From Oscillospiraceae bacterium (GTDB taxonomy: Bacteria; Bacillota; Clostridia; Oscillospirales; Oscillospiraceae), in NCBI GenBank assembly GCA_902766215.1, contig CACXCV010000203.1, positions 1 to 12,055 on the forward strand: a stretch of 12,055 nucleotides of DNA, written 5' to 3'. Below, in pieces: positions 849 to 12,055 of this stretch. The notes beneath the pieces were generated by a model. The model was given only the letters and a program-made list of their open reading frames with translations. It had not been told where the DNA came from and did not search any database. Both the position numbers and the translations under genes were made by a program. Every line of letters starts with the position of its first letter. Position 1 is the first letter of the stretch.

Positions 849-2723
849 ATGACAAACAGCAATCCCCCGCGAAAGCGCGCGCTGCCGCGCTGGATGATCC
901 CTGCGCTGTGCGCCGTGCTGCTGCTGGCAGCGGTGGTTGCCGCTGTGTTCTGGCGCTATCTTGGCAGTCTGCGCGGCCCCGGCGGGCAGACCGGACGGCT
1001 GAGCCTGAACGACTATGACAAAATTCTGCCCGGCGTGCGCATCTGCGGCATCGAGGTGTCCGGCCTGACCCAGGACGAGGCCGCCGCAAAGGTGGAAACC
1101 GCGCTGCAGGCAGACGCCGCAGCCCAGCAGTTTACGCTGCAGCTGCCGGATCAGGAGCTGACGCTCACCGGCTATCTCCAGCGCAGCGTTCCCACGCTGG
1201 CCGGCGTGGTGAAAGAGGCCTATGCCCACGGGCGCGACGGCATGTCCTCGCTGGAGGACGCCATGGTCCAGGCCGAGGCCTCTCCCCTGGAGTTGGAACC
1301 CGCCGTGACAGAGACCATTGACAGCAGCGCCATTGACGCGGCGCTGGCCGCCTTTACCAAAAAGCTGGACAGCCGCGCCACCGACGCCGTGATCACCCAG
1401 CAGGAGGACAGCATTGAGCTGCGCAAGGGCAAGGATGGCCGTGCGCTGGACGAGGAGTCGCTGAGCCGTCAGATTGTCGCAGCAGTCAAGAGCGGCAAGT
1501 CCTCGCTGAAGGCTGTATACACCCTCACCCGCAGCGGCGAACGCCAGCTGAGGGCCCTGTACGAAACCTTCTGCACTGAGGCAGTGGACGCCCACTGGGA
1601 CAGCGAAACCCACAGCATTGCACCCGAGCAGGAGGGCCGCCGTTTCGACCTGGCGGCCGCCCTGAAGCAGCTGGAAGCTCCCGACGGGGCGCAGCTGGTG
1701 ATCCCGGTGGTGCATCAGGCGCCAAAGATCACCGAGGCCATGCTGAAGGAGCGGCTGTTTGCCGACCGGTTGGGCAGTTATGACAGCCCGCACACGCCCA
1801 TTGCCGCCCGCACAACCAACCTGACCCTGGCCTGCCAGGCCATTGACGGCACGGTGCTCAACCCTGGCGAGGTGTTCTCCTTCAACGACACCGTGGGCGA
1901 GCGCACCGCCGCCAAGGGCTATCAGGACGCTGCGATCTATCTTGATGGCCAGACCACAGATTCGCTGGGCGGCGGCGTGTGTCAGGTGGCCTCCACCATC
2001 TACTGCTGCGCCCTGATGGCCAACCTTGAGATCGTCGCACGCACCGAGCACATGTACTTTGTGGACTATGTGCCCCCCGGGCAGGACGCCACGGTCTATT
2101 GGGGGGCGCTGGACTTTCAGTTCCGCAACAACACGGATTATCCCCTGCGGATCGACGCCAGCGTCTCCGGCGGCTATGTACACATCAATCTCCAGGGCAC
2201 CAATGCCGACGGCAGCTATGCCAAAATCACCTATGAGCAGCTGTCGCAGACCCCCTGGGAGGACGTGGTGAAGGTGGACGAAACCAAGCCTGCGGGTTTT
2301 TCCCAGGTGACCACCACGCCCTATACAGGCCGCGTCATCCAGACCTATCGCAGCGTGTATGACAAGGACGGAGCGCTGCTCTCCACCCGGGCCGAGGCCA
2401 AAAGCACCTACCACAAACGCGACCGTGTGACCACCATCGGCAAGCAACCCGACCCGGAACCCACGCCCGGCCCGGAGCCGGATCCCGATCCGACCCCCGT
2501 CGATCCACCGGTCACCGATCCGTTTATCCCCATTGACCCGGAGCCGCCCGAGCCGGAGGAGCCGCTTATCCCCGGCGATGGCGAAAGCGCTCCCGGCAGC
2601 GATGAAAACGGCGAAAGCGCTCCCGGCAGCGATGAAAACGGCGAAAGCGTTCCCGGCAGCGGAACCGCACCCGCCGGGCAGACGGCGCGCTGGCCCTGGG
2701 CAGCGGATCTTGACGCAAATTAA
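849..2723 (+). CDS. VanW-family cell-wall protein. N-terminal signal-anchor TM helix, then a peptidoglycan-binding-like region, a VanW domain, a G5-like domain, and a C-terminal Pro-rich/acidic low-complexity tail.
   Basis: 624-aa ORF with an RBS 6-12 nt upstream. N-terminus MIPALCAVLLLAAVVAAVFW is a TM segment. The central region GGGVCQVASTIYCCALMANLEIVARTEHMYFVDYVPPGQDATVYWGALDFQFRNNTDYPLRIDASVSGGYVHINLQG is characteristic of VanW domains. The following ~80 aa (YEQLSQTPWEDVVKVDETKPAGFSQ...RDRVTTIG) resemble a G5 domain. The antisense 661-aa ORF 810..2795 is rejected as spurious. Confidence 0.85.
   Translation: MTNSNPPRKRALPRWMIPALCAVLLLAAVVAAVFWRYLGSLRGPGGQTGRLSLNDYDKILPGVRICGIEVSGLTQDEAAAKVETALQADAAAQQFTLQLPDQELTLTGYLQRSVPTLAGVVKEAYAHGRDGMSSLEDAMVQAEASPLELEPAVTETIDSSAIDAALAAFTKKLDSRATDAVITQQEDSIELRKGKDGRALDEESLSRQIVAAVKSGKSSLKAVYTLTRSGERQLRALYETFCTEAVDAHWDSETHSIAPEQEGRRFDLAAALKQLEAPDGAQLVIPVVHQAPKITEAMLKERLFADRLGSYDSPHTPIAARTTNLTLACQAIDGTVLNPGEVFSFNDTVGERTAAKGYQDAAIYLDGQTTDSLGGGVCQVASTIYCCALMANLEIVARTEHMYFVDYVPPGQDATVYWGALDFQFRNNTDYPLRIDASVSGGYVHINLQGTNADGSYAKITYEQLSQTPWEDVVKVDETKPAGFSQVTTTPYTGRVIQTYRSVYDKDGALLSTRAEAKSTYHKRDRVTTIGKQPDPEPTPGPEPDPDPTPVDPPVTDPFIPIDPEPPEPEEPLIPGDGESAPGSDENGESAPGSDENGESVPGSGTAPAGQTARWPWAADLDAN
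2580..2662. repeat. Direct tandem repeat of about 2.8 x 30 bp (ggcgaaagcgctcccggcagcgatgaaaac). It encodes the in-frame peptide repeats GESAPGSDEN within the VanW-protein tail.
   Basis: Copies 2580-2609 and 2610-2639 are identical. The third copy, 2640-2662, is partial and carries one substitution (c->t). The unit length is a multiple of 3, which preserves the reading frame. Confidence 0.85.
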
Positions 2724-4148: not shown

Positions 4149-5951
4149 CTAGGCCAGCAGTGCCGCCAGCCGGCACAGCACCACGCCGATGGCCGTGGGC
4201 AGCAGCACAGCCGCCGCCGTCCAGCGCCAGCTGTGCGTCTCCCGCCGGATGGTCAGACAGGTGGTGGAGCACGGCCAGTGGAACAGGAAAAACAGCATGG
4301 TACACAGCGCCGTGGCACGGGTCCAGCCCGCCGCCGGAAGCAGTGCCGCCAGCTCGGCCGTTTCTGCCCCGGCCAGGGTACCGGACGAGGTCAGCAGCAT
4401 CACGACCACGGGCATGACCAGCTCGTTAGCCGGAAAGCCCAGCAAAAACCCGGTCAGAATTGCTCCGTTCATCCCCAGATATCGCCCGATCGGCTCCAGC
4501 GCCGCTGCCAGACGCGCCAGCAGCGGCGTCCCGCCGGGGGAGAGATTGGCCAGCAGCCAGAGCACCAGCCCCGCCGGAGCCGCAACCACTGCCGCCCGCG
4601 ACAGCACGTGCCCGGTGCGGTCCAGCAGGCTGCGCAGCAGAATCTGCCCTACCCGCGGCCGGCGGAAGGGCGGCAGCTCCAAGGCATAGGCCGAGTGTTC
4701 GCCCCGCAGCAGCGTGCGGCTCAGGCCAAAGGACGCAGCCAGCGTAGCGCCCACGCCCAGCGCCACCAGCAGCGTCAGAATACCTGCCGCCAGCAGCGAG
4801 CTGCCCGCCCCCTGCCCGGCAAAGAACAGCACAATCAGCGAAATCAGGGCGGGAAAGCGCCCGTTGCACGGCACCATGCTGTTGGTGAGAATTGCCAACA
4901 GCCGTTCGCGGGGCGAATCGATGATCCGGCAGCCTACCACGCCCGCCGCGTTGCAGCCAAAGCCCATGGCCATAGTCAGCGCCTGCTTGCCGCAGGCGCC
5001 GCAGCAGGCAAAGGCACTGTCCATCAAAAACGCGGCCCGGGGCAGATAGCCCAGGTCCTCCAGCAGCGTGAAGAGCGGGAAAAAGATGGCCATGGGCGGC
5101 AGCATCACCGCCACCACCCGCGCCGCCGTGGCATACACACCGTCCAGCAGCGTCCCTCTGAGCCACCAGGGCAGCCCCAGCGCCGCCGCACCCCGGTGCA
5201 GCCAGCCGCCCAGCCAGTCAAAGCCCCGCTGCAGCAGCGCCGAGGGCAGATTGGCGCCCCAGATGGTCAGCCAGAATATGCCCAGCAGCAGCACCAGCAG
5301 CAGCGGCACGCCCAGCGGTCCGGTCAGGGCGCGGTCGAGGGTCAGCTCCCGACGGCTGCGCGGCTGGCCGCTTCCGCTGGTACAGGCGGCGCTGATACCC
5401 TCGGCCAGGCGCACCACCTCGCGCGGCTGGCCGGGCACGGCCAGCGGGTGCGGCCGCTCAAAGCCGTCCAGCACCGCCCGCAGCCGCGCCAACAGGTGGT
5501 CAACACCCTCTCCCCTACCGGCGGACAGCCCGCACACCGGCACGCCCAGCCGCCGCTCCAGCTGCAGCAGATCCACGGAAATATTCCGGCGGCCCGCTTC
5601 ATCCAGCAGATTGACCGCAACCACCACCTGCTCCGCCCGGGCCAGAATCTGCAGCGCCAGCACCAGTGATCGCTGCAGACAGGTGGCGTCGCAGACCACA
5701 ATGACGGCCTCTGCCTCTCCGCCGTAGAGGAACGAATCGGCCACAGCCTCCTCCGGCGAGCCGGGGCTGAGGGAATAGGTCCCCGGCAGGTCCACCAGCA
5801 GCAGTTCGCCGCACTGCCCCTGCGCCAGCTCCACCGTCTTGCCCGGCCAATTGCCTGTGTGCTGCCGCAGGCCGGTCAGCGCGTTGAAGAGCGTGCTCTT
5901 CCCCACGTTGGGATTTCCGGCCAGGGCCACCACCCTGCTTTTCTGTTCCAT
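4149..5951 (-). CDS. feoB: Ferrous iron transporter FeoB (N-terminal G-domain plus polytopic membrane domain). Start reassigned to the internal ATG at 5951, versus the ORF-track start at 6065.
   Basis: From MEQKSRVVALAGNPNVGKSTLFNALTG (G1 motif) onward the protein is FeoB-like. It has a hydrophobic C-terminal two-thirds with Gate-motif-like stretches. A strong RBS GGGGAGG sits 7 nt upstream of ATG 5951 (minus strand). The 38 codons upstream in the track ORF have no RBS and no FeoB similarity. Confidence 0.9.
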   Translation of the reverse strand: MEQKSRVVALAGNPNVGKSTLFNALTGLRQHTGNWPGKTVELAQGQCGELLLVDLPGTYSLSPGSPEEAVADSFLYGGEAEAVIVVCDATCLQRSLVLALQILARAEQVVVAVNLLDEAGRRNISVDLLQLERRLGVPVCGLSAGRGEGVDHLLARLRAVLDGFERPHPLAVPGQPREVVRLAEGISAACTSGSGQPRSRRELTLDRALTGPLGVPLLLVLLLGIFWLTIWGANLPSALLQRGFDWLGGWLHRGAAALGLPWWLRGTLLDGVYATAARVVAVMLPPMAIFFPLFTLLEDLGYLPRAAFLMDSAFACCGACGKQALTMAMGFGCNAAGVVGCRIIDSPRERLLAILTNSMVPCNGRFPALISLIVLFFAGQGAGSSLLAAGILTLLVALGVGATLAASFGLSRTLLRGEHSAYALELPPFRRPRVGQILLRSLLDRTGHVLSRAAVVAAPAGLVLWLLANLSPGGTPLLARLAAALEPIGRYLGMNGAILTGFLLGFPANELVMPVVVMLLTSSGTLAGAETAELAALLPAAGWTRATALCTMLFFLFHWPCSTTCLTIRRETHSWRWTAAAVLLPTAIGVVLCRLAALLA

Positions 5952-6007
5952 CGCTCCGCCTCCCCATACATGCTGCCACAGCCTATGCACAGGGAACGCC
6001 ATACGTG

Positions 6008-6046
6008 AAAAAGCCGCTGCCTGGGCAGCGGCTTCTCCTGTTTTTT
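6008..6046 (-). terminator. Intrinsic terminator of the nfeD-flotillin-orf113-ATPase operon. The stem is gccgctgcc/ggcagcggc, extendable to 11 bp. On the minus strand it is immediately followed by UUUUU. On the plus strand there is also a distal T6, so it is partly bidirectional.
   Basis: Plus strand 6008-6012 is aaaaa, giving a U-tract on the minus strand directly after the hairpin 6013-6032. It lies 62-103 nt downstream of the minus-strand stop at 6111. Confidence 0.7.
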
Positions 6047-6110
6047 CTGCGGGATACGCCCTCATCCGGCGGGACCGGCAGGCTTTGGCGCGCCGGCCGC
6101 AGTCTGCCGC

Positions 6111-6869
6111 TTACTCGGCATGCTGCTCGTCCAGCAGGTAGGCCAGCATACGCTCCGGCGCTTCGAGAAAGCGGCGGGTGATCTGATAGTGCTGGGTCTG
6201 CTGCCAGGCAACCGGCTGGATTCCCTCGTCCGTCAGCTCATAGAGCAGCGCACCGGGTAGCGCCATGAGGATCGGCGAATGGGTGGAGAGCAGAATCTGC
6301 GCCCCCAGCCCCGCCAAGCGATGCAGCGCCGCCAGCAGGGTCAGCTGCCGCATGGGCGAAAGCGCCGCCTCCGGCTCGTCCAGCAGATAAAGGCCGTCTG
6401 GCCCAAAGCGGTTGAGCACCAGGGACAGGAAGCTCTCCCCATGGGACTGCGCATGCAGCGACTGCCCGCCATAACGCTGGAGAAAGCGGTCGCCGCCGGG
6501 CAGCTGCGCCAGCTGATCCACATGGGTTGCCACGTTGTAAAAGCTTTCAGCCCGGAGGAAAAACCCGTCCTTCGGCCGCCGGATGCCGCGGCAGAGCGTC
6601 AGGCTCTGCCCCAGCGGCGAGTGCGTCTGCGCCGTGGCAAACTGAAAGTTGGTCGATCCGCCCTCGGGATTCAATCCCGCGGCAACCGCCACGGCCTCCA
6701 GCAGGGTCGATTTCCCCACGCCGTTTTCCCCCACCAGGATGGTCACCGGAGCCAGCGGCAGCAGCTCCATCGTCCGCATGTGCCGCACCACCGGCAGGCT
6801 GCTGACATAGCTGTCCTCCGGCAGCGCGCGGCTGAGCCGCACGCCCGTGAGAAACTGCCGGCTGAGCAT
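6111..6869 (-). CDS. Minimal stand-alone ABC-type / AAA_21-like ATPase (252 aa). Has Walker A, signature-like, Walker B/D-loop and H-loop motifs. No fused effector or DNA-binding domain.
   Basis: Walker A VGENGVGKST. ABC-signature-like HAQSHGESFLSLV. Walker B/D-loop GLYLLDEPEAALSP. H-loop LLSTHSP. RBS GGAGGGGG 8 nt upstream of ATG 6869. Starts 3 nt after the stop of the upstream 113-aa gene. Confidence 0.85.
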   Translation of the reverse strand: MLSRQFLTGVRLSRALPEDSYVSSLPVVRHMRTMELLPLAPVTILVGENGVGKSTLLEAVAVAAGLNPEGGSTNFQFATAQTHSPLGQSLTLCRGIRRPKDGFFLRAESFYNVATHVDQLAQLPGGDRFLQRYGGQSLHAQSHGESFLSLVLNRFGPDGLYLLDEPEAALSPMRQLTLLAALHRLAGLGAQILLSTHSPILMALPGALLYELTDEGIQPVAWQQTQHYQITRRFLEAPERMLAYLLDEQHAE

Positions 6870-6872
6870 GGC

Positions 6873-7214
6873 TCAGTCCCCCTCCAGCTGCCGCACCACC
6901 TCGCGGATGGTGTCAAGAAAGGCCTCCTCGCCCACCGTGTTCACCTTGAACCACACGGCCTGGCTGCCGCCGGAGGTGATGGCCGACAGGAACAGCCGCC
7001 CGTTCTCGCCGGCCAGGGTCAGGCTCATGCTGACCCGGTTGCCGCCAAACATGCTGTAGCGCTCATAAACGCGCACCGCCACGCGTGCATTGTCCAGCGT
7101 GCAGTCGCTGCCGTCCTCATAGCTGGCGGAGAGACTGCCGTCGAGGATTGCCCGATGCAGCTGGTCCAATACGGTGTCAAATGAGCCGGTCAGATGGGTT
7201 TCAAGCTTCGCCAT
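6873..7214 (-). CDS. Small soluble hypothetical protein (113 aa). No TM segment and no recognisable motif. Translationally coupled to flotillin upstream and to the ATPase downstream.
   Basis: ATG 7214 is preceded by GGAGG 6 nt upstream (minus strand) and overlaps the last 14 nt of the flotillin gene. The TGA stop at 6873-6875 is 3 nt before the ATPase ATG. Codon usage is consistent with its neighbours. The predicted protein is beta-rich and acidic. Confidence 0.7.
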   Translation of the reverse strand: MAKLETHLTGSFDTVLDQLHRAILDGSLSASYEDGSDCTLDNARVAVRVYERYSMFGGNRVSMSLTLAGENGRLFLSAITSGGSQAVWFKVNTVGEEAFLDTIREVVRQLEGD

Positions 7215-8613
7215 GGGGCGCCTCCTCAGGTGCGGGCTGGACGGGCTGCGGAGCCGGGGTCACGGGCTTGCCCATAAAGCCGGGCAGCTCCATCCCCGCC
7301 ATGCGGAACATTTCGTTCATCGGCGGCACGGCGCTCATATACGACTTGATAAAATCGGAGGTGGTGGAGCCGCCGTCTTTGCCGTTCATGGAATCCCAGA
7401 CAGTAATCTTGTCGATGGACAGGTTCTTGATGGCCTCCATCTGGGTCTTGAGGAGGTTCTCCAGCTTGTCAGCAATCATCAGCTGCACGGCAGCCTGCGT
7501 ATCACCGCCGGCAGCCTCGATGATCCGGCGGAAGCCCTCGGCCTGGCGGGTCAGCAGCTCCTCGGCGCCCTTGGCCTGGGCGGCCAGGCGGGCATAGATG
7601 GCGTCGGCCTCGCCCTGGGCCTGGCGGCGGATGCGCTCGGCCTCTGCCTCGGCAGACAGCTGGGCCTGCTCCTTTTCAATCTCGGCGCGGACGATCACAT
7701 CGGCCCGCAGGCTGGCCTGTTCGCGCACAGCACGGGCCCTTTCCGCGTTTTCCTCGGCGGCGTAGGCTTCTTCCAGCGCCTTGGCCTGGGCGACCTTCTC
7801 GGCCGCGGTGGCACGGCGCAGCGCCTCGGCCTCGCGCTCGCGGCGCACGGCCTCCGAATCGGCAATCTGCACCTTGGCCTCGTTTTCGCCCTGGATGGCC
7901 ACGGCATTGGCCTCAGCCACCGAAACACGCTGGTCGCGCTGGGCCTCGGACTCGCCCACGGTACCGGCACGGTTCTGCTCGGCCACATTGCGCTTGGCGT
8001 CGTTGATGGCCTTGGCTGCCGCTTCCTTTCCCAGGGCGTCGATATAGCCGGATTCGTCGGTGATGTCGGTAACGTTGACGTTGATCAGCCGCAGGCCGAT
8101 CTTTTTCAGCTCGGTTTCCACGTTGGAGGACACCGCTGCCAGAAACTTGTCGCGGTCGGTGTTGATCTCCTCGATGTCCATGGTGGCGATGACCAGACGC
8201 AGCTGGCCAAAAATGATGTCCTTTGCCAGCTCCTGCACCTGATCCAGGCCCAGACCCAGCAGGCGCTCGGCCGCATTCTGCATCACTGCCGTCTCGGTGG
8301 AGATGCCCACGGTAAAGCGCGAGGGCACGTCAATGCGGATGTTCTGCCGGGACAGGGCGCTGCGCAGGTCCACACTGATGGAGATGGGCGTCAGGTCGAG
8401 ATAGGCGCAGGACTGGATCACCGGCCAGACAAAGGCCGCGCCGCCGTGGAGGCAGCGGGCCGAACGGGCGCTGCCGTTTTCGGTGTTGCCCACCTTACCA
8501 TAGATCACCATGACCTTGTCAGAGGGGCACTTGCGATAGCGGGACAGAATGGCCAGCGTGGTGCCGAAAAACAGCAGCACAATGACCGCGATGAGAATGT
8601 AGATGGCTGGCAT
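7201..8613 (-). CDS. Flotillin / SPFH (band-7) family protein, FloT (YuaG)-like. N-terminal membrane anchor, SPFH domain, long Ala/Glu-rich coiled-coil region, Pro-rich C-terminal tail.
   Basis: 470 aa. N-terminus MPAIYILIAVIVLLFFGTTLAIL is hydrophobic. The following SPFH-like region is VMVIYGKVGN...FVWPVIQS...RFTVGISTE. An extended EA-repeat region (AEQNRAGTVGESEAQRDQRVSVAEANAVAIQGENEAKVQIADSEAVRREREAEALRR...) is typical of flotillins. RBS AAAGGAG 7 nt upstream of ATG 8613. Preceded by an nfeD-like gene, as in B. subtilis yuaF-floT. Confidence 0.9.
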   Translation of the reverse strand: MPAIYILIAVIVLLFFGTTLAILSRYRKCPSDKVMVIYGKVGNTENGSARSARCLHGGAAFVWPVIQSCAYLDLTPISISVDLRSALSRQNIRIDVPSRFTVGISTETAVMQNAAERLLGLGLDQVQELAKDIIFGQLRLVIATMDIEEINTDRDKFLAAVSSNVETELKKIGLRLINVNVTDITDESGYIDALGKEAAAKAINDAKRNVAEQNRAGTVGESEAQRDQRVSVAEANAVAIQGENEAKVQIADSEAVRREREAEALRRATAAEKVAQAKALEEAYAAEENAERARAVREQASLRADVIVRAEIEKEQAQLSAEAEAERIRRQAQGEADAIYARLAAQAKGAEELLTRQAEGFRRIIEAAGGDTQAAVQLMIADKLENLLKTQMEAIKNLSIDKITVWDSMNGKDGGSTTSDFIKSYMSAVPPMNEMFRMAGMELPGFMGKPVTPAPQPVQPAPEEAPHGEA

Positions 8614-8647: not shown

Positions 8648-9346
8648 TCAATCATCGCGCTCGACAACCAGTAGGCCGCCGCTGAGGTCCGTCACCCGCA
8701 CCTGCATCCCCGTGGGCAGGGCTTCGCCCTCGGTGACGGCGTCAAGCTCCATCAGCTGTTCGCCCAGGACCAGCTGCACCTTTCCGGCGCCGTGCCGCCG
8801 GGCCGGGATGGGAATGTACACCGTGCCGGACTCGCCAAGGGCGCTGCGCTGTGAAACGGTGCCGTTTTCCTGCAGGCCAGCCAGCAGCTGGATCAGCTTG
8901 GCAATGAGAACCAGGCTCAGCAGGCCGGAAGCCAGCGCAATGATCAGCGCCAGCACCGGCCGCAGACCGCACTCCAGCGCCGCGATGCCGGCCCAGCTGC
9001 CCACAGCCAGAAAGCCGATGATCCCCCGGACGGAAAACAGCCGCAGGCCGTGATCTGCCCCGGCGTCCGCGCCGCCGTCCGCATCCGGAGGCAGGCTGCC
9101 GTCCGGATCGGCCACCAGCTCTGTGTCGGGCACACCGTCCAGATCGACGTCTGAATCCAAATCCAGACCGGCGTCCGCGTCGCAGTCGCCGTCGCACAGG
9201 CCGCTGGTGTCCGAATCGGTCTGGTCGCCCCCGCCGCCGCTGAACAGCAGCAGGATCGTCTGAATCAGCAGGATCAGCGCACTGGGCGCGCCGATGAGAA
9301 ACAGCGCCTGCTCCAGCGCCGGAATCCCGGCCCACCATGCTTCCAT
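8648..9346 (-). CDS. NfeD-family membrane protein (short form): N-terminal TM helix, unusual Asp-rich ~60-aa loop, two further TM helices, C-terminal OB-fold beta-barrel. Start reassigned to ATG 9346, versus the ORF-track start at 9418.
   Basis: A strong RBS GAGGGGG sits 7 nt upstream of ATG 9346. The track start at 9418 coincides with the -35 hexamer of the operon promoter, so it cannot be coding. The C-terminus GESGTVYIPIPARRHGAGKVQLVLGEQLMELDAVTEGEALPTGMQVRVTDLSGGLLVVERDD matches the NfeD OB domain. Located upstream of a flotillin, the conserved partnership. Confidence 0.8.
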   Translation of the reverse strand: MEAWWAGIPALEQALFLIGAPSALILLIQTILLLFSGGGGDQTDSDTSGLCDGDCDADAGLDLDSDVDLDGVPDTELVADPDGSLPPDADGGADAGADHGLRLFSVRGIIGFLAVGSWAGIAALECGLRPVLALIIALASGLLSLVLIAKLIQLLAGLQENGTVSQRSALGESGTVYIPIPARRHGAGKVQLVLGEQLMELDAVTEGEALPTGMQVRVTDLSGGLLVVERDD

Positions 9347-9389: not shown

Positions 9390-9418
9390 AGTATACAATC
9401 TGCGCTGGGGTTTGTCAA
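9390..9418 (-). promoter_or_regulatory. Consensus sigma70 promoter of the nfeD-flotillin operon on the minus strand: -35 TTGACA (plus coordinates 9418..9413), 17-nt spacer, -10 TATACT (9395..9390).
   Basis: Read directly from the reverse complement of 9390-9418. Predicted TSS near 9383, ~37 nt upstream of the nfeD ATG at 9346. Confidence 0.6.
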
Positions 9419-9532: not shown

Positions 9533-10399
9533 GTGACTCTGGGTGAGAAAATCAAAAAGGCACGGCTGGACCGCCACATGACCCAGCGTGACGTGGTGGG
9601 CAGCTATATCACCCGCAACATGCTCTCAAAAATTGAAAACAACAGCGCCACGCCCTCGATGAAAACGCTGGAGTTTCTGGCCGCGCAGCTGAATCTGCCA
9701 ATCAGCTATTTCGTCTCGGAAAACGTTGTGGCGGTGGTTCCACGCTCACTGCAGGCGGCGCGCGAGGCATTTTCTGCCGGACAATACGACGCCGCCCTGG
9801 CCCTTCTGGAGGAAGCCGACGGCCTGGAGGATGAACAGGATGAGACGCAGCTGCTTTGCGCGCTGTGTCACCTGCATCTGGCCGCAGCAGCCAGCCGCCG
9901 CGACGATGCGCAGGCCGCCCTGGCCCACGCCCGCGCCGCCATGGAGGCCAACCGCCAAACCATCTACGGCAGCGAGGCGACAGCCGCCAAGGCGGCCTTG
10001 CTGGCCGCACGGTATGACGAGGCGTCGTTTGACCGCGCAATGGAAGCATATCACACGGCGCGGTCCTCGATGGGGCTGGACCGGCTGTACCACCTGACCA
10101 TGGCGCAGCACTATCTGGCCGCCGGTCAGACGCAGCCGGCTTCCGCCGAGCTGGCGCAGCTGGATGGCCCCTCGGGTCAGGACCCCGACTGTCTGCGCAT
10201 GCAGGGCGAGCTGTCCATGCAGCAGAGCGACTATCCGCGGGCCGCGCAGCAGCTGCGCCGGGCCGAGCAGCTGGCCGTTACCGCCGGCAGCAGCGAGGAC
10301 GCCATGGCGCCGCTGTATGCCATGCTGGAGCAGTGCTACCGCGAGATGGAGGACTATAAAGAGGCATACAACTACGCGGCAAAGCAGATTCAGCGATAA
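9533..10399 (+). CDS. XRE-family HTH transcriptional regulator with a C-terminal TPR-like helical-repeat domain. This is PlcR/Rgg (RNPP-family)-like architecture. GTG start.
   Basis: 288 aa. The N-terminus LGEKIKKARLDRHMTQRDVVGSYITRNMLSKIENNSATPSMKTLEFLAAQLNLPISYF closely follows the PlcR/Rgg HTH pattern (LGxxIKKxRxxxxxTQxxL...SxIExGxxxPSMxxLxxxAxxLxxPIxxF). The remainder is Ala/Leu-rich with amphipathic repeats and a Y/A-rich C-terminus. Monocistronic, bounded by its promoter and a downstream terminator. Confidence 0.85.
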   Translation: MTLGEKIKKARLDRHMTQRDVVGSYITRNMLSKIENNSATPSMKTLEFLAAQLNLPISYFVSENVVAVVPRSLQAAREAFSAGQYDAALALLEEADGLEDEQDETQLLCALCHLHLAAAASRRDDAQAALAHARAAMEANRQTIYGSEATAAKAALLAARYDEASFDRAMEAYHTARSSMGLDRLYHLTMAQHYLAAGQTQPASAELAQLDGPSGQDPDCLRMQGELSMQQSDYPRAAQQLRRAEQLAVTAGSSEDAMAPLYAMLEQCYREMEDYKEAYNYAAKQIQR

Positions 10400-10400
10400 T

Positions 10401-10447
10401 CCCGCCAAAAAACAACACCGCGCCGCCCCCCGGGGCGGCGCGGTGTT
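10401..10447. terminator. Bidirectional intrinsic terminator: a 16-bp perfect GC stem (aacaccgcgccgcccc/ggggcggcgcggtgtt), flanked by A6 upstream and T-rich sequence downstream.
   Basis: Palindrome 10414-10447 read from the sequence. On the minus strand it is followed by UUUUUU, which is canonical for the Gx-transporter gene whose stop codon is at 10447-10449. On the plus strand it follows the regulator stop (10397-10399) with a weaker U-tract. Confidence 0.75.
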
Positions 10448-10929
10448 CATTGTCTCAGCCGGCGCAGCAGCGCCGTGACGCACAGGCCGGTAAATGCCCC
10501 GGCCGCCATGGAGGCCAGCAGCATCACCGGCAGCCACACCAGCAGCGCCGGCGTGTCAGTGATGGCCACAGCCACGGCCATCTGGCCCAGGCTGTGCCCC
10601 AGCGCCCCCAGCACACCCAGCACCCAGGTCTGGGGGACAGCCTGGCGCAGCAGCGCCATCACGGCAAAGGCGCACAGCCCGCCCCCAGCGGCATAGAACA
10701 TGGCCGCCACGGTGCCGCAGACCAGGTTGCCCAGAATAATCCGCGCTGCCAGCACCAGCGCGGCGTCGCGCGCCCGGCCGGTGCGCAGCACATACAGCGT
10801 CACCGCATTGGCCAGGCCCAGCTTGATGCCCGGGATGGGCGCCAGCGGCGGCAGCTGCTGCTCGACGACAAACATGATCAGCGCCACAGCCGTGAGCAGG
10901 GCCAGGCGGGTCAGGCGGTTAGGTTTCAT
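10447..10929 (-). CDS. Gx transporter family protein (formerly annotated as 'heptaprenyl diphosphate synthase component I'-like). Small polytopic membrane protein. Start reassigned to ATG 10929, versus the ORF-track start at 11106.
   Basis: RBS GGAGGA 8 nt upstream of ATG 10929. From MKPNRLTRLALLTAVALIMFVVEQQLPPLAPIPGIKLGLANAVTLYVL onward the product is hydrophobic, with about 5 predicted TM helices. The 59-codon upstream extension in the track ORF is Arg/Trp/Cys-rich junk and would overlap the upstream gene. Confidence 0.8.
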   Translation of the reverse strand: MKPNRLTRLALLTAVALIMFVVEQQLPPLAPIPGIKLGLANAVTLYVLRTGRARDAALVLAARIILGNLVCGTVAAMFYAAGGGLCAFAVMALLRQAVPQTWVLGVLGALGHSLGQMAVAVAITDTPALLVWLPVMLLASMAAGAFTGLCVTALLRRLRQ

Positions 10930-10945
10930 ATGGGCGCTCCTCCGT

Positions 10946-11299
10946 TCATCCGGCCACGCTGTCCAGCGCATCGCCGGAGAATGTGATGACCAGCCGGTGC
11001 GGCAGGCACACCACCGGCGCGCCGCCCCGCACCGGGCCGCGTGCCACGCAGATCCCGTCGGGGCAGTCGGCCTCGGCCACGGCCACACAGCCGCTGGAAA
11101 CCACAATGCGGTTATAGCCGCCCCCGGGCAGCTCGACCAGCAGCTCGGTATCCTCCGTCAGGGGCAGGACGGCAATCTGCTGTCCATCCAGCCACACCTG
11201 CGCCGCGCCGGCCTCCGCCGGGCGCAGCAGCCAGACGCTCAGCCCTGCCAGCACCGCCGCCAGCGCCAGAAACAGCGCGGCCCAGCGGCGCGCGCTCAT
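10946..11299 (-). CDS. NusG domain II-containing protein. N-terminal signal-anchor followed by a small extracytoplasmic beta domain with a conserved CPDxxC motif.
   Basis: 117 aa. N-terminus MSARRWAALFLALAAVLAGLSVWLL is a TM/signal segment. Motifs VVSSGCVAVAEADCPDGICV and VVCLPHRLVI are typical of this family. The ATG overlaps the ApbE TGA (ATGA). RBS GGAGGTG 5 nt upstream. Confidence 0.8.
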   Translation of the reverse strand: MSARRWAALFLALAAVLAGLSVWLLRPAEAGAAQVWLDGQQIAVLPLTEDTELLVELPGGGYNRIVVSSGCVAVAEADCPDGICVARGPVRGGAPVVCLPHRLVITFSGDALDSVAG

Positions 11300-12055
11300 G
11301 AAAGCACCTCCGCCTCGACCCCGGTCAGGCGCAGGCCGCCGGTCTGATATACGCGGCCGCCGTCGTCTACCAGCACCATATCAAAGTCGCTCTGCTGCCG
11401 CCAGAGCGCCAGCGCCGCGTCCTTGCCCATGACATACACCGCCGTGCTCAGCGCGTCGGCATACAGGCCGCTGCCGGCGACGATGGTCACGCTGGTCAGG
11501 CCGCTGCGGGCCGGATAGCCCGTGGCCGGGTCAAGGATGTGGTGATACACCGTGCCGCCCTCCTCGAACCGGCGCTGATAGCCCCCGGAGGTCACCACGG
11601 CCGCGCTGCCGGAAATCCACAGCGTGCCCAGCATCGCACTCTCGTTTGCCGGGTCGCGGATGGCAATCTGCCAGTCGCCGCCGCCGGGCTTGGTTCCCAG
11701 GGTCTGCACGTTGCCGCCCAGGTTGAGAACGGCAGATTCCACCCCCGCCTGCCGCAGCTGCCGGCAGAGCACATCCGCCGCATAGCCCTTGGCCACGGCG
11801 CCCAGCGTCACCGCCCCGCCCTGGGGCAGGGTAAACGTGTCGCCCTGCCAGGACACGGCGCGATAATCCACGCAGCGCAGCGCGGCTGCCAGTGCATCCG
11901 CCTGCGGCAGGCGATAGTCCCCGGTGGAAAAGCCCCACAGCGCCGCCACCGGGCCGATGGTGACGTCCAGCGCGCCATCCGTCAGCCGGCACAGCGCCAG
12001 CGACTGCCGCAGCAGCTCTGCCGTGTCCGGCGACAGCGCCGCGCTGCCGCCGGCG
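11296..12055 (-). CDS. FAD:protein FMN transferase (ApbE family). The N-terminal part lies beyond the window end (5'-partial). The frame is open to nt 12055.
   Basis: The frame continued by hand to the window edge gives ...LDVTIGPVAALWGFSTGDY..., then GGNVQTLGTKPGGGDWQIAIRDP...SGGYQRRFEEGGTVYHHILDPATGYPA...SVTIVAGSGLYADALSTAVYVMG. These are hallmark ApbE motifs. The listed ORF start at 11949 is only an internal GTG. The overlapping ORF 11531..11992 in another frame is spurious. Confidence 0.85.
   Translation of the reverse strand, partial: AGGSAALSPDTAELLRQSLALCRLTDGALDVTIGPVAALWGFSTGDYRLPQADALAAALRCVDYRAVSWQGDTFTLPQGGAVTLGAVAKGYAADVLCRQLRQAGVESAVLNLGGNVQTLGTKPGGGDWQIAIRDPANESAMLGTLWISGSAAVVTSGGYQRRFEEGGTVYHHILDPATGYPARSGLTSVTIVAGSGLYADALSTAVYVMGKDAALALWRQQSDFDMVLVDDGGRVYQTGGLRLTGVEAEVLS

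Follow-up and report, generated by a model that had tools for sequence, protein, structure and literature searches.

The window, a stretch of 12,055 nucleotides, is high in G+C (55–72%), and its nearest sequences in public data belong to Oscillospiraceae recovered from gut metagenomes. Its minus strand carries four closely packed genes that form one unit, running from nfeD through flotillin and DUF6054 to an ATPase gene. A promoter-like site at 9,390–9,418 (minus strand; TTGACA and TATACT separated by 17 nt, 11 of 12 matches), recognized by consensus match only, lies roughly 45 nt ahead of the probable start of nfeD, a position that agrees with the 232-aa NfeD call in the sister strains. The first gene (8,648–9,346, minus strand) encodes an NfeD-like membrane protein of 232 aa, counted from the ATG at 9,346. 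The list of open reading frames (ORFs) holds a longer, TTG-started nfeD frame extending to 9,418; the gene calls at loci L081–L084 give 232 aa. The match to the Pfam NfeD C-terminal model is weak (E = 4.2e-4, below the cut-off). The second gene (7,201–8,613, minus strand) encodes a FloT-like flotillin of the SPFH/Band_7 type (Band_7, E = 6e-27), which matches the FloT model at E = 1.3e-43, below the equivalog cut-off. The two genes lie on the same strand with a gap of 34 nt, and their order is kept in L081–L084. An NfeD-like gene immediately upstream of a co-oriented Band_7 gene identifies the unit as an nfeD–flotillin (SPFH) operon.

The third gene (6,873–7,214, minus strand) encodes an acidic, 113-aa DUF6054 family protein with a predicted KA1-like α+β fold, assigned from Pfam and a structural model. 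A GAGGAGG ribosome-binding site precedes its start at 7,214, which overlaps the flotillin stop at 7,201 by 14 nt; every sister strain shares this overlap with the window. The fourth gene (6,111–6,869, minus strand) encodes a 252-aa stand-alone, head-only ABC-superfamily ATPase of the AAA_21/AAA_15 type, recognized by family matches, motifs, and model. The ribosome-binding site GGAGGGGG precedes its ATG at 6,869, which stands 3 nt past the DUF6054 stop. Both ORFs lie where the original prediction had placed them, on the minus strand at the tail of the flotillin operon, and because each has thousands of homologs, they are real genes and not chance ORFs. Between the operon end and feoB, a GC-rich hairpin (6,011–6,034) that has T-runs on either strand constitutes a bidirectional terminator. 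The mechanically listed feoB ORF carries an N-terminal extension that contains this hairpin, so that feoB must truly begin at an internal ATG (MEQKSRVV...), with which the sister-strain call agrees. Rfam and tRNA scans of the window returned no matches. On balance, we favor the view that DUF6054 and the ATPase are two separate genes, co-transcribed as the last two cistrons of the nfeD–flotillin operon.

Sister strains of the window's species, which share 96.3% nucleotide identity with it on both sides, keep nfeD–flotillin–DUF6054 and lack the ATPase. Comparison with these strains delimited a strain-variable segment at 6,035–6,816, comprising the ATPase body and its 3′ UTR, which is replaced in them by 4.8 kb carrying three opposite-strand genes. 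The terminator hairpin is kept in the sister strains and forms one edge of this segment. At the other end, roughly the first 50 nt of the ATPase gene are retained, with the ATG changed to ACG; this remnant shows that the ATPase was ancestral at the site and has since been lost. The ATPase-bearing form is also the rarer one in public data, with about seven contigs carrying the window's ATPase cluster versus well above 100 carrying the sister strains' DUF6054 cluster. These data show that the ATPase is an accessory gene in this species, lost in most strains.

The small protein had been described as unrecognizable. We found that it belongs to a catalogued family, DUF6054 (PF19524; E = 1.8e-43, 147.3 bits against a cut-off of 27), with a full-length match of residues 1–110 on positions 1–110 of the 111-position model. 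Its description as acidic and β-rich was borne out by a pI of 4.79 and by the AlphaFold model (pLDDT 86.5), in which five strands and two helices are arranged as strand, helix, four strands, helix. The family comprises at least 5,482 clusters at 90% identity, with 537 representatives at 50% identity, and an Oscillospiraceae copy and an actinobacterial copy are 57% identical. The most conserved residues are ERYS, R60, a TSGGSQ loop ahead of the last helix, and K90. Judging from where they fall in the sequence, these residues could cluster around the glycine-rich loop at the helix N-terminus and bind an anionic ligand. The top structural matches of the model are KA1 domains, a resemblance between a predicted fold and structures to which numerous unrelated two-layer α/β folds come nearly as high in score. 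Sequence search gave no close solved structure for DUF6054, and fold searches led to generic two-layer α/β folds. Domain fusions are rare and mutually unrelated (ParB, Cys_rich_CPCC, DUF2500, and His_Phos_1) and are possibly gene-calling artifacts; no DUF6054–ATPase fusion was present among the 150 best representatives. A literature search returned no paper naming DUF6054, and the RefSeq names of the two proteins are "DUF6054 family protein" and "AAA family ATPase".

For the ATPase, the nucleotide-binding motifs named in the original prediction were all present, with Walker A (GENGVGKST) at residues 47–55, the signature (SHGES) at 142–146, Walker B (LLDEPEAALSP) at 162–172, and the H-loop (STHSP) at 195–199. 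In a 17-sequence family alignment, these motifs and the D-loop were invariant or nearly so. The protein scored 55.7 bits against Pfam AAA_21 (cut-off 27) and 44.1 bits against AAA_15 (cut-off 32.1), and its AlphaFold model (pLDDT 84.7, pTM 0.84) is a single ABC-type head. With all motifs present, both HMMs above their gathering scores, and an ABC fold in the predicted model, the protein is a member of the ABC superfamily of the AAA_21/AAA_15 kind. The Pfam description of AAA_21 bears an 'AbiEii, type IV TA' label. Neither Pfam nor the model revealed a TOPRIM, nuclease, membrane, or DNA-binding domain in the 252 aa; one ABC domain spans the entire protein, as expected of the minimal AAA_21-type ATPase without an effector domain that had been predicted. 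Homologs form at least 8,000 clusters at 90% identity, and family members at 50–56% identity occur in Cupriavidus, Caballeronia, Mycobacterium, Streptomyces, Bacillus, and Clostridium replicons. In a PDB profile search, the nearest solved sequences were PtuA, OLD, AriA, and Rad50, matched over motif stretches only; no close solved structure was found by sequence, and fold searches led to generic ABC heads. The style of its motifs (GxNGxGKS..LEA, DEPE..LSP, and THSP) places the ATPase in the soluble SMC/OLD-like branch, although it carries none of the insertions or partner nucleases of that branch. The protein may correspond to COG3910, 'Predicted ATPase'. COG3910 is listed among the non-transporter ABC-like COGs (PMC9973855), and in the literature it was found only in one list. 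Both proteins are ordinary members of known, catalogued families of uncharacterized function.

Assignment of the ATPase as an ABC transporter subunit was rejected, as NCBIfam transporter models scored below 40 bits against cut-offs above 190; Pfam ABC_tran gave 23.8 bits, below its cut-off of 25. Identity to the transporter subunits BtuD, HrtA, and MacB is 15–20%, the signature reads SHGES and not LSGGQ, and in a Foldseek search of the model, transporter subunits aligned full-length but poorly (TM 0.45–0.5). No conserved permease or binding-protein neighbor was found in about 90 ATPase loci. The sole permease exception was an FtsX-like gene upstream of the ATPase on one Clostridium plasmid. 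A RecF, RecN, or SMC identity was likewise rejected (RecF model, 29 bits against a cut-off of 172; SMC_N, 28.3 bits against 40). Members of these families carry a coiled-coil or domain II insertion between Walker A and the signature; in the ATPase the two motifs are only about 85 residues apart, and its model is without a coiled coil. Compared with the heads of SMC, Rad50, RecF, and UvrA, the ATPase lacks the coiled coil, zinc hook, or DNA-binding insertion, and these heads do not score clearly better in structural comparison than transporter subunits do.

The association of the two genes was evaluated from both sides. For DUF6054, 80 loci were sampled, one per species, with 10-kb flanks, and neighbors were mapped by tblastn. 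The ATPase was absent within 10 kb from 72 of the 80 loci; in the other eight it lay at most 2.5 kb downstream on the same strand, following ruvB in six and directly following DUF6054 in two (L013 and L066). DUF6054 itself was found as ruvC–ruvA–DUF6054–ruvB–glmM (31 of 80 loci), ispG–polC–DUF6054–(DUF1835/DUF3658 protein or ATPase)–hisZG–hisD (10 to 11), aroF–DUF6054–aroB–aroA (six), and ahead of genes for a small membrane protein and then an ammonium transporter (three), the remaining loci being varied; an actinobacterial plasmid carries ilvA–DUF6054. These contexts (ruvA/ruvB, polC, aroF/aroB, ilvA, amt, and flotillin) have no single theme. For the ATPase, 80 metagenomic and 10 viral-contig loci were sampled. 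DUF6054 was nearby in one of the 90 (L110, a ruv arrangement with ruvB between the two) and directly upstream in none of about 75 metagenomic loci. Clustering of the ORFs within 2.5 kb across 91 loci revealed no shared neighbor family except in four near-identical loci.

Among ATPases 69–73% identical to that of the window, which form one Oscillospiraceae sub-clade, the DUF6054–ATPase pair is present in six of seven lineages, and in these six the stop and start codons overlap or nearly abut. The pair is flanked by AraC and GH2 genes (L085, L180/L181, and L185), by rplT–rpmI–infC (P0131 contig), by genes for a histidine kinase and AlkZ (L013), by polC and hisZG (L066, outside the sub-clade), and by flotillin in the window, giving five different sets of flanking genes. 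In the seventh lineage (L182–L184), the ATPase lies directly beside the HTH-TPR regulator gene that is also found in the window, without nfeD, flotillin, or DUF6054; at L176, ruvB is followed by the ATPase, and no DUF6054 lies between ruvA and ruvB. ATPases next to DUF6054 are 57–73% identical to the window protein, versus 50–63% for unpaired ones, and have the same motifs. These results show that, within one Oscillospiraceae sub-clade, the pairing is ancestral and the two genes are translationally coupled, and that the coupling is facultative, each family occurring mostly without the other. Neither DUF6054 nor the ATPase needs the other. The predicted two-gene module therefore stands as a tightly coupled pair recurring within the sub-clade, but not as an obligate unit, given the 72 DUF6054 loci without the ATPase. 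Co-occurrence outside flotillin loci, proposed at the outset as a check, was observed with other flanks, and no defense genes lay near any inspected copy of the pair. Because the pairing survived several rearrangements within one clade, some functional link is suggested, and a regulatory ATPase with an adaptor subunit is possible in this sub-clade.

The neighbors of the ATPase in other taxa provide a modest lead, drawn from gene order, that may point to DNA repair or recombination. A census of 84 non-redundant loci yielded 86 tight same-strand neighbors, nine of which are core repair genes: RuvB (three), MutS (two), MutL, a Y-family polymerase, an HhH-GPD glycosylase, and RecG. By our own rough estimate, core repair genes make up 1–2% of genes as background. 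The ATPase lies within tens of bases of MutS (L090), of MutS and MutL, one on each side (L111), of the Y-family polymerase (L116), of the HhH-GPD glycosylase (L138), of RecG (L169), and, in Oscillospiraceae loci, of RuvB; on an Amycolatopsis plasmid, a recombinase gene overlaps the ATPase start. The nine repair neighbors represent only about five independent lineages among the 84 loci, most neighbors are unrelated metabolic genes, and no DNA-related gene adjoins the pair in the window.

We propose, with a probability of roughly 55%, that the locus holds two co-transcribed genes of known families, of which the ATPase acts as a clamp or switch and DUF6054 as an optional accessory, the flotillin operon supplying merely the promoter. 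By analogy with other ABC ATPases, the ATPase would work as an ATP-driven homodimer in which two heads sandwich ATP, with Walker A on one side of it and the SHGES signature on the other. Its target would be soluble, possibly DNA repair intermediates, rather than a membrane permease, and the DUF6054 protein would serve as its accessory or regulatory partner in this sub-clade.

Alternatively, the two genes may have unrelated functions and merely hitch-hike, their adjacency being a gene order inherited in one clade and each using the promoter of its host operon. Such an origin would agree with the finding that each family is mostly alone, that both genes sit inside many unrelated operons, and that even close relatives have lost one of them while keeping its partner; nor do the ATPases adjacent to DUF6054 form a diverged class, as their identities and motifs indicate. 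It accounts less readily for overlapping or abutting stop and start codons that are kept through at least five flanking contexts, or for the eight of 80 DUF6054 loci with a same-strand ATPase shortly downstream; by our own estimate, a single-copy gene without linkage in a genome of 3 Mb would give well under one such locus. Pure hitch-hiking is the less likely reading, but a serious one.

A stronger version of the clamp-or-switch proposal would make DUF6054 and the ATPase an undescribed facultative two-protein system, in which a KA1-like adaptor tunes an ATP-gated clamp in DNA repair or recombination; we consider this unlikely. Still less probable is a flotillin-linked function, a model-based idea in which the KA1-like DUF6054 protein, by attaching to the membrane or to the flotillin scaffold, would bring the soluble ATPase into membrane microdomains. 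The 14-nt overlap conserved between flotillin and DUF6054 speaks for it, as do the structural matches to KA1 domains, a group in which several members are reported to bind acidic phospholipids. At none of the 80 other species-level loci did a flotillin lie within 10 kb of DUF6054, the linkage being seen only in the window and in the sister strains; a role of the flotillin operon in localization, as the original prediction had envisaged, cannot therefore be general. On the same count, DUF6054 was rejected as a regular third gene of flotillin operons.

The pair had also been read as an anti-phage, abortive-infection, or toxin–antitoxin module, with the ATPase as an AAA_21 sensor or toxin and the small protein as its partner or antitoxin. 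The nearest sequence relatives of known function are defense ATPases (mad3, AriA, Old, PtuA, and GajA), and the ATPase is strain-variable, patchy, and also carried on plasmids, but the PADLOC and PDB matches are confined to two short stretches (Walker A, and Walker B to the H-loop) and never extend over the full length. A nuclease, TOPRIM, or HNH partner is absent, the ATPase occurs in only 10 of 2.9 million viral contigs and in three phage records, and DUF6054 has no PHROG match. ATPase identity of 50–56% between Firmicutes, Actinobacteria, and Betaproteobacteria is, moreover, atypical of fast-evolving defense genes.

The individual systems were rejected one by one. OLD and Gabija GajA do not fit, as the protein has no TOPRIM, ends at residue 252, and has no adjacent helicase (GajB) gene; the PADLOC GajA and Old matches cover motif stretches of about 45 residues only. 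For PARIS, defined by an AriA that measures about 460 aa and contains a scaffold insertion and by a gene for the TOPRIM effector AriB, AriA matched at residues 151–203 only, and no AriB-like gene was present in the window or related loci. For Septu or retron PtuA–PtuB, defined by a PtuA of about 450–550 aa with a helical insertion and by an adjacent PtuB HNH nuclease, the NCBIfam PtuA model gave 22.7 bits against a cut-off of 500, the PDB profile matches to PtuA covered residues 152–206 or the Walker A region only, and no HNH gene was nearby. A toxin–antitoxin pair, whose genes are mutually dependent and co-inherited, the toxin never without its antitoxin, was rejected because about 89 of the 90 metagenomic and viral loci, as well as L176 and L182–L184, have the ATPase without DUF6054, and 72 of the 80 species loci, together with the sister strains, have DUF6054 without the ATPase; occurrence of either gene alone in close relatives argues against toxin–antitoxin dependence. 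With motif-level matches and no enrichment in the PADLOC, PHROG, viral-contig, phage, and plasmid searches, there is no support for a defense or toxin–antitoxin module, and we regard this reading as highly improbable.

Two testable leads emerge from these results. The first is that of the minimal, partner-less ABC ATPases, a very large and strongly conserved family found repeatedly directly behind DNA-repair genes; the second is DUF6054, strongly conserved, with its KA1-like predicted fold and conserved glycine-rich loop. Thousands of genes in gut Clostridia would gain an annotation if a function could be assigned to one or the other family.

Compared with known systems, the ATPase shares with PtuA, AriA, OLD, and GajA the GxNGxGKS..LEA Walker A context, the DEPE..L(H/S)P Walker B/D-loop, and the (T/S)THSP H-loop. 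It differs from them in being less than half their size, in having no helical or coiled-coil insertion or TOPRIM, and in standing without a PtuB, AriB, or GajB partner and outside any defense-island context, with matches limited to motif stretches of about 25–60 residues. The DUF6054 protein, compared with the KA1 domains of Chk1, BRSK1, and MARK and the C-terminal domain of AMPK-α, is only 8–13% identical, and it is bacterial, stand-alone, and acidic, whereas a phospholipid-binding KA1 domain is defined by the KA1 fold and a basic surface. Within its own family, it agrees with the other PF19524 members in length and in the invariant motifs (ERYS, GNR, TSGGSQ, and K..NT.GEE.FL) and has no sequence feature that sets it apart; its position after flotillin is peculiar to the window lineage. 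Three-gene nfeD–flotillin operons are found in B. subtilis as yuaF–floT–yuaI and yqeZ–floA–yqfB. Like these Firmicutes operons, the window unit consists of nfeD, flotillin, and then small unrelated gene(s) in one transcription unit; unlike them, its trailing genes are DUF6054 and an ABC-type ATPase, a combination observed only in this species-level lineage.

Comparison at the strain level revealed that the body of the ATPase gene has been exchanged. In the sister strain L081 (10400-15233), a 4.8-kb segment replaces window positions 6035-6816. Its genes lie on the opposite strand and encode an esterase, a protein that is Cu_amine_oxidN1-like, and a solute-binding protein. AT-rich sequence lies at one junction of the replaced segment, and a 5′ remnant of the ATPase gene is kept in L081, in which the start codon ATG is changed to ACG.

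Two homologs of the window ATPase were noted. P0123 is identical to it for the first ~185 residues and diverges sharply beyond them; its C-terminus looks like the product of recombination. P0122 (395 aa) matches AAA_15/AAA_21 twice, around residues 163-206 and again around 306-349; the two matches suggest either that part of the protein is duplicated or that they are an artefact of assembly. In other taxa, an ATPase of the same family was observed beside DNA-repair genes: it is flanked by mutS and mutL in L111 (454-5967) and directly follows mutS after an 8-nt gap in L090 (5375-8756). The Clostridium estertheticum plasmid NZ_CP077611.1 (L191, 88000-102000) also bears an ATPase of this family, 5 kb from a DUF6054 gene and on the other strand; there, DUF6054 follows a gene for an MmcQ/YjbR DNA-binding protein.

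Upstream of the nfeD operon, and divergent from it, lies a gene for an HTH_3 + TPR regulator (9533-10399, plus strand), followed by an ApbE/NusG_II/Hpre_diP_synt_I trio (10447-11949, minus strand) that is kept in the sister strains. In a related lineage (L182-L184), the same regulator gene directly adjoins the ATPase gene, with no flotillin genes between them (L183 and L184), and the trio adjoins the ATPase gene in L182 and L183, in a position and orientation opposite to those in the window. The regulator might control whatever gene adjoins it.

On the other side of the ATPase gene, feoB is listed as a 638-aa ORF (4149-6065, minus strand) that reads through the terminator hairpin. Its true start is probably an internal ATG near 5951; in the sister strains, feoB is 600 aa long. 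An ORF for feoA was not seen beside feoB in the window. Further away, a VanW/PG_binding_4 protein (849-2723, plus strand) has a Pro/Glu-rich C-terminal tail with tandem GESAPGSDEN repeats, and the 216-aa Ala/Ser/Asp-rich ORF upstream of its gene (9-659) gave zero Pfam matches.

The settings of DUF6054 were compared across 80 loci, one per species. The order ruvA-DUF6054-ruvB was found in 31 of the 80 species (for example, L008, 9350-11413), and at other loci the gene is flanked by polC and hisZG or by aroF and aroB. DUF6054 is a small, strongly conserved gene whose host housekeeping operon differs from family to family.
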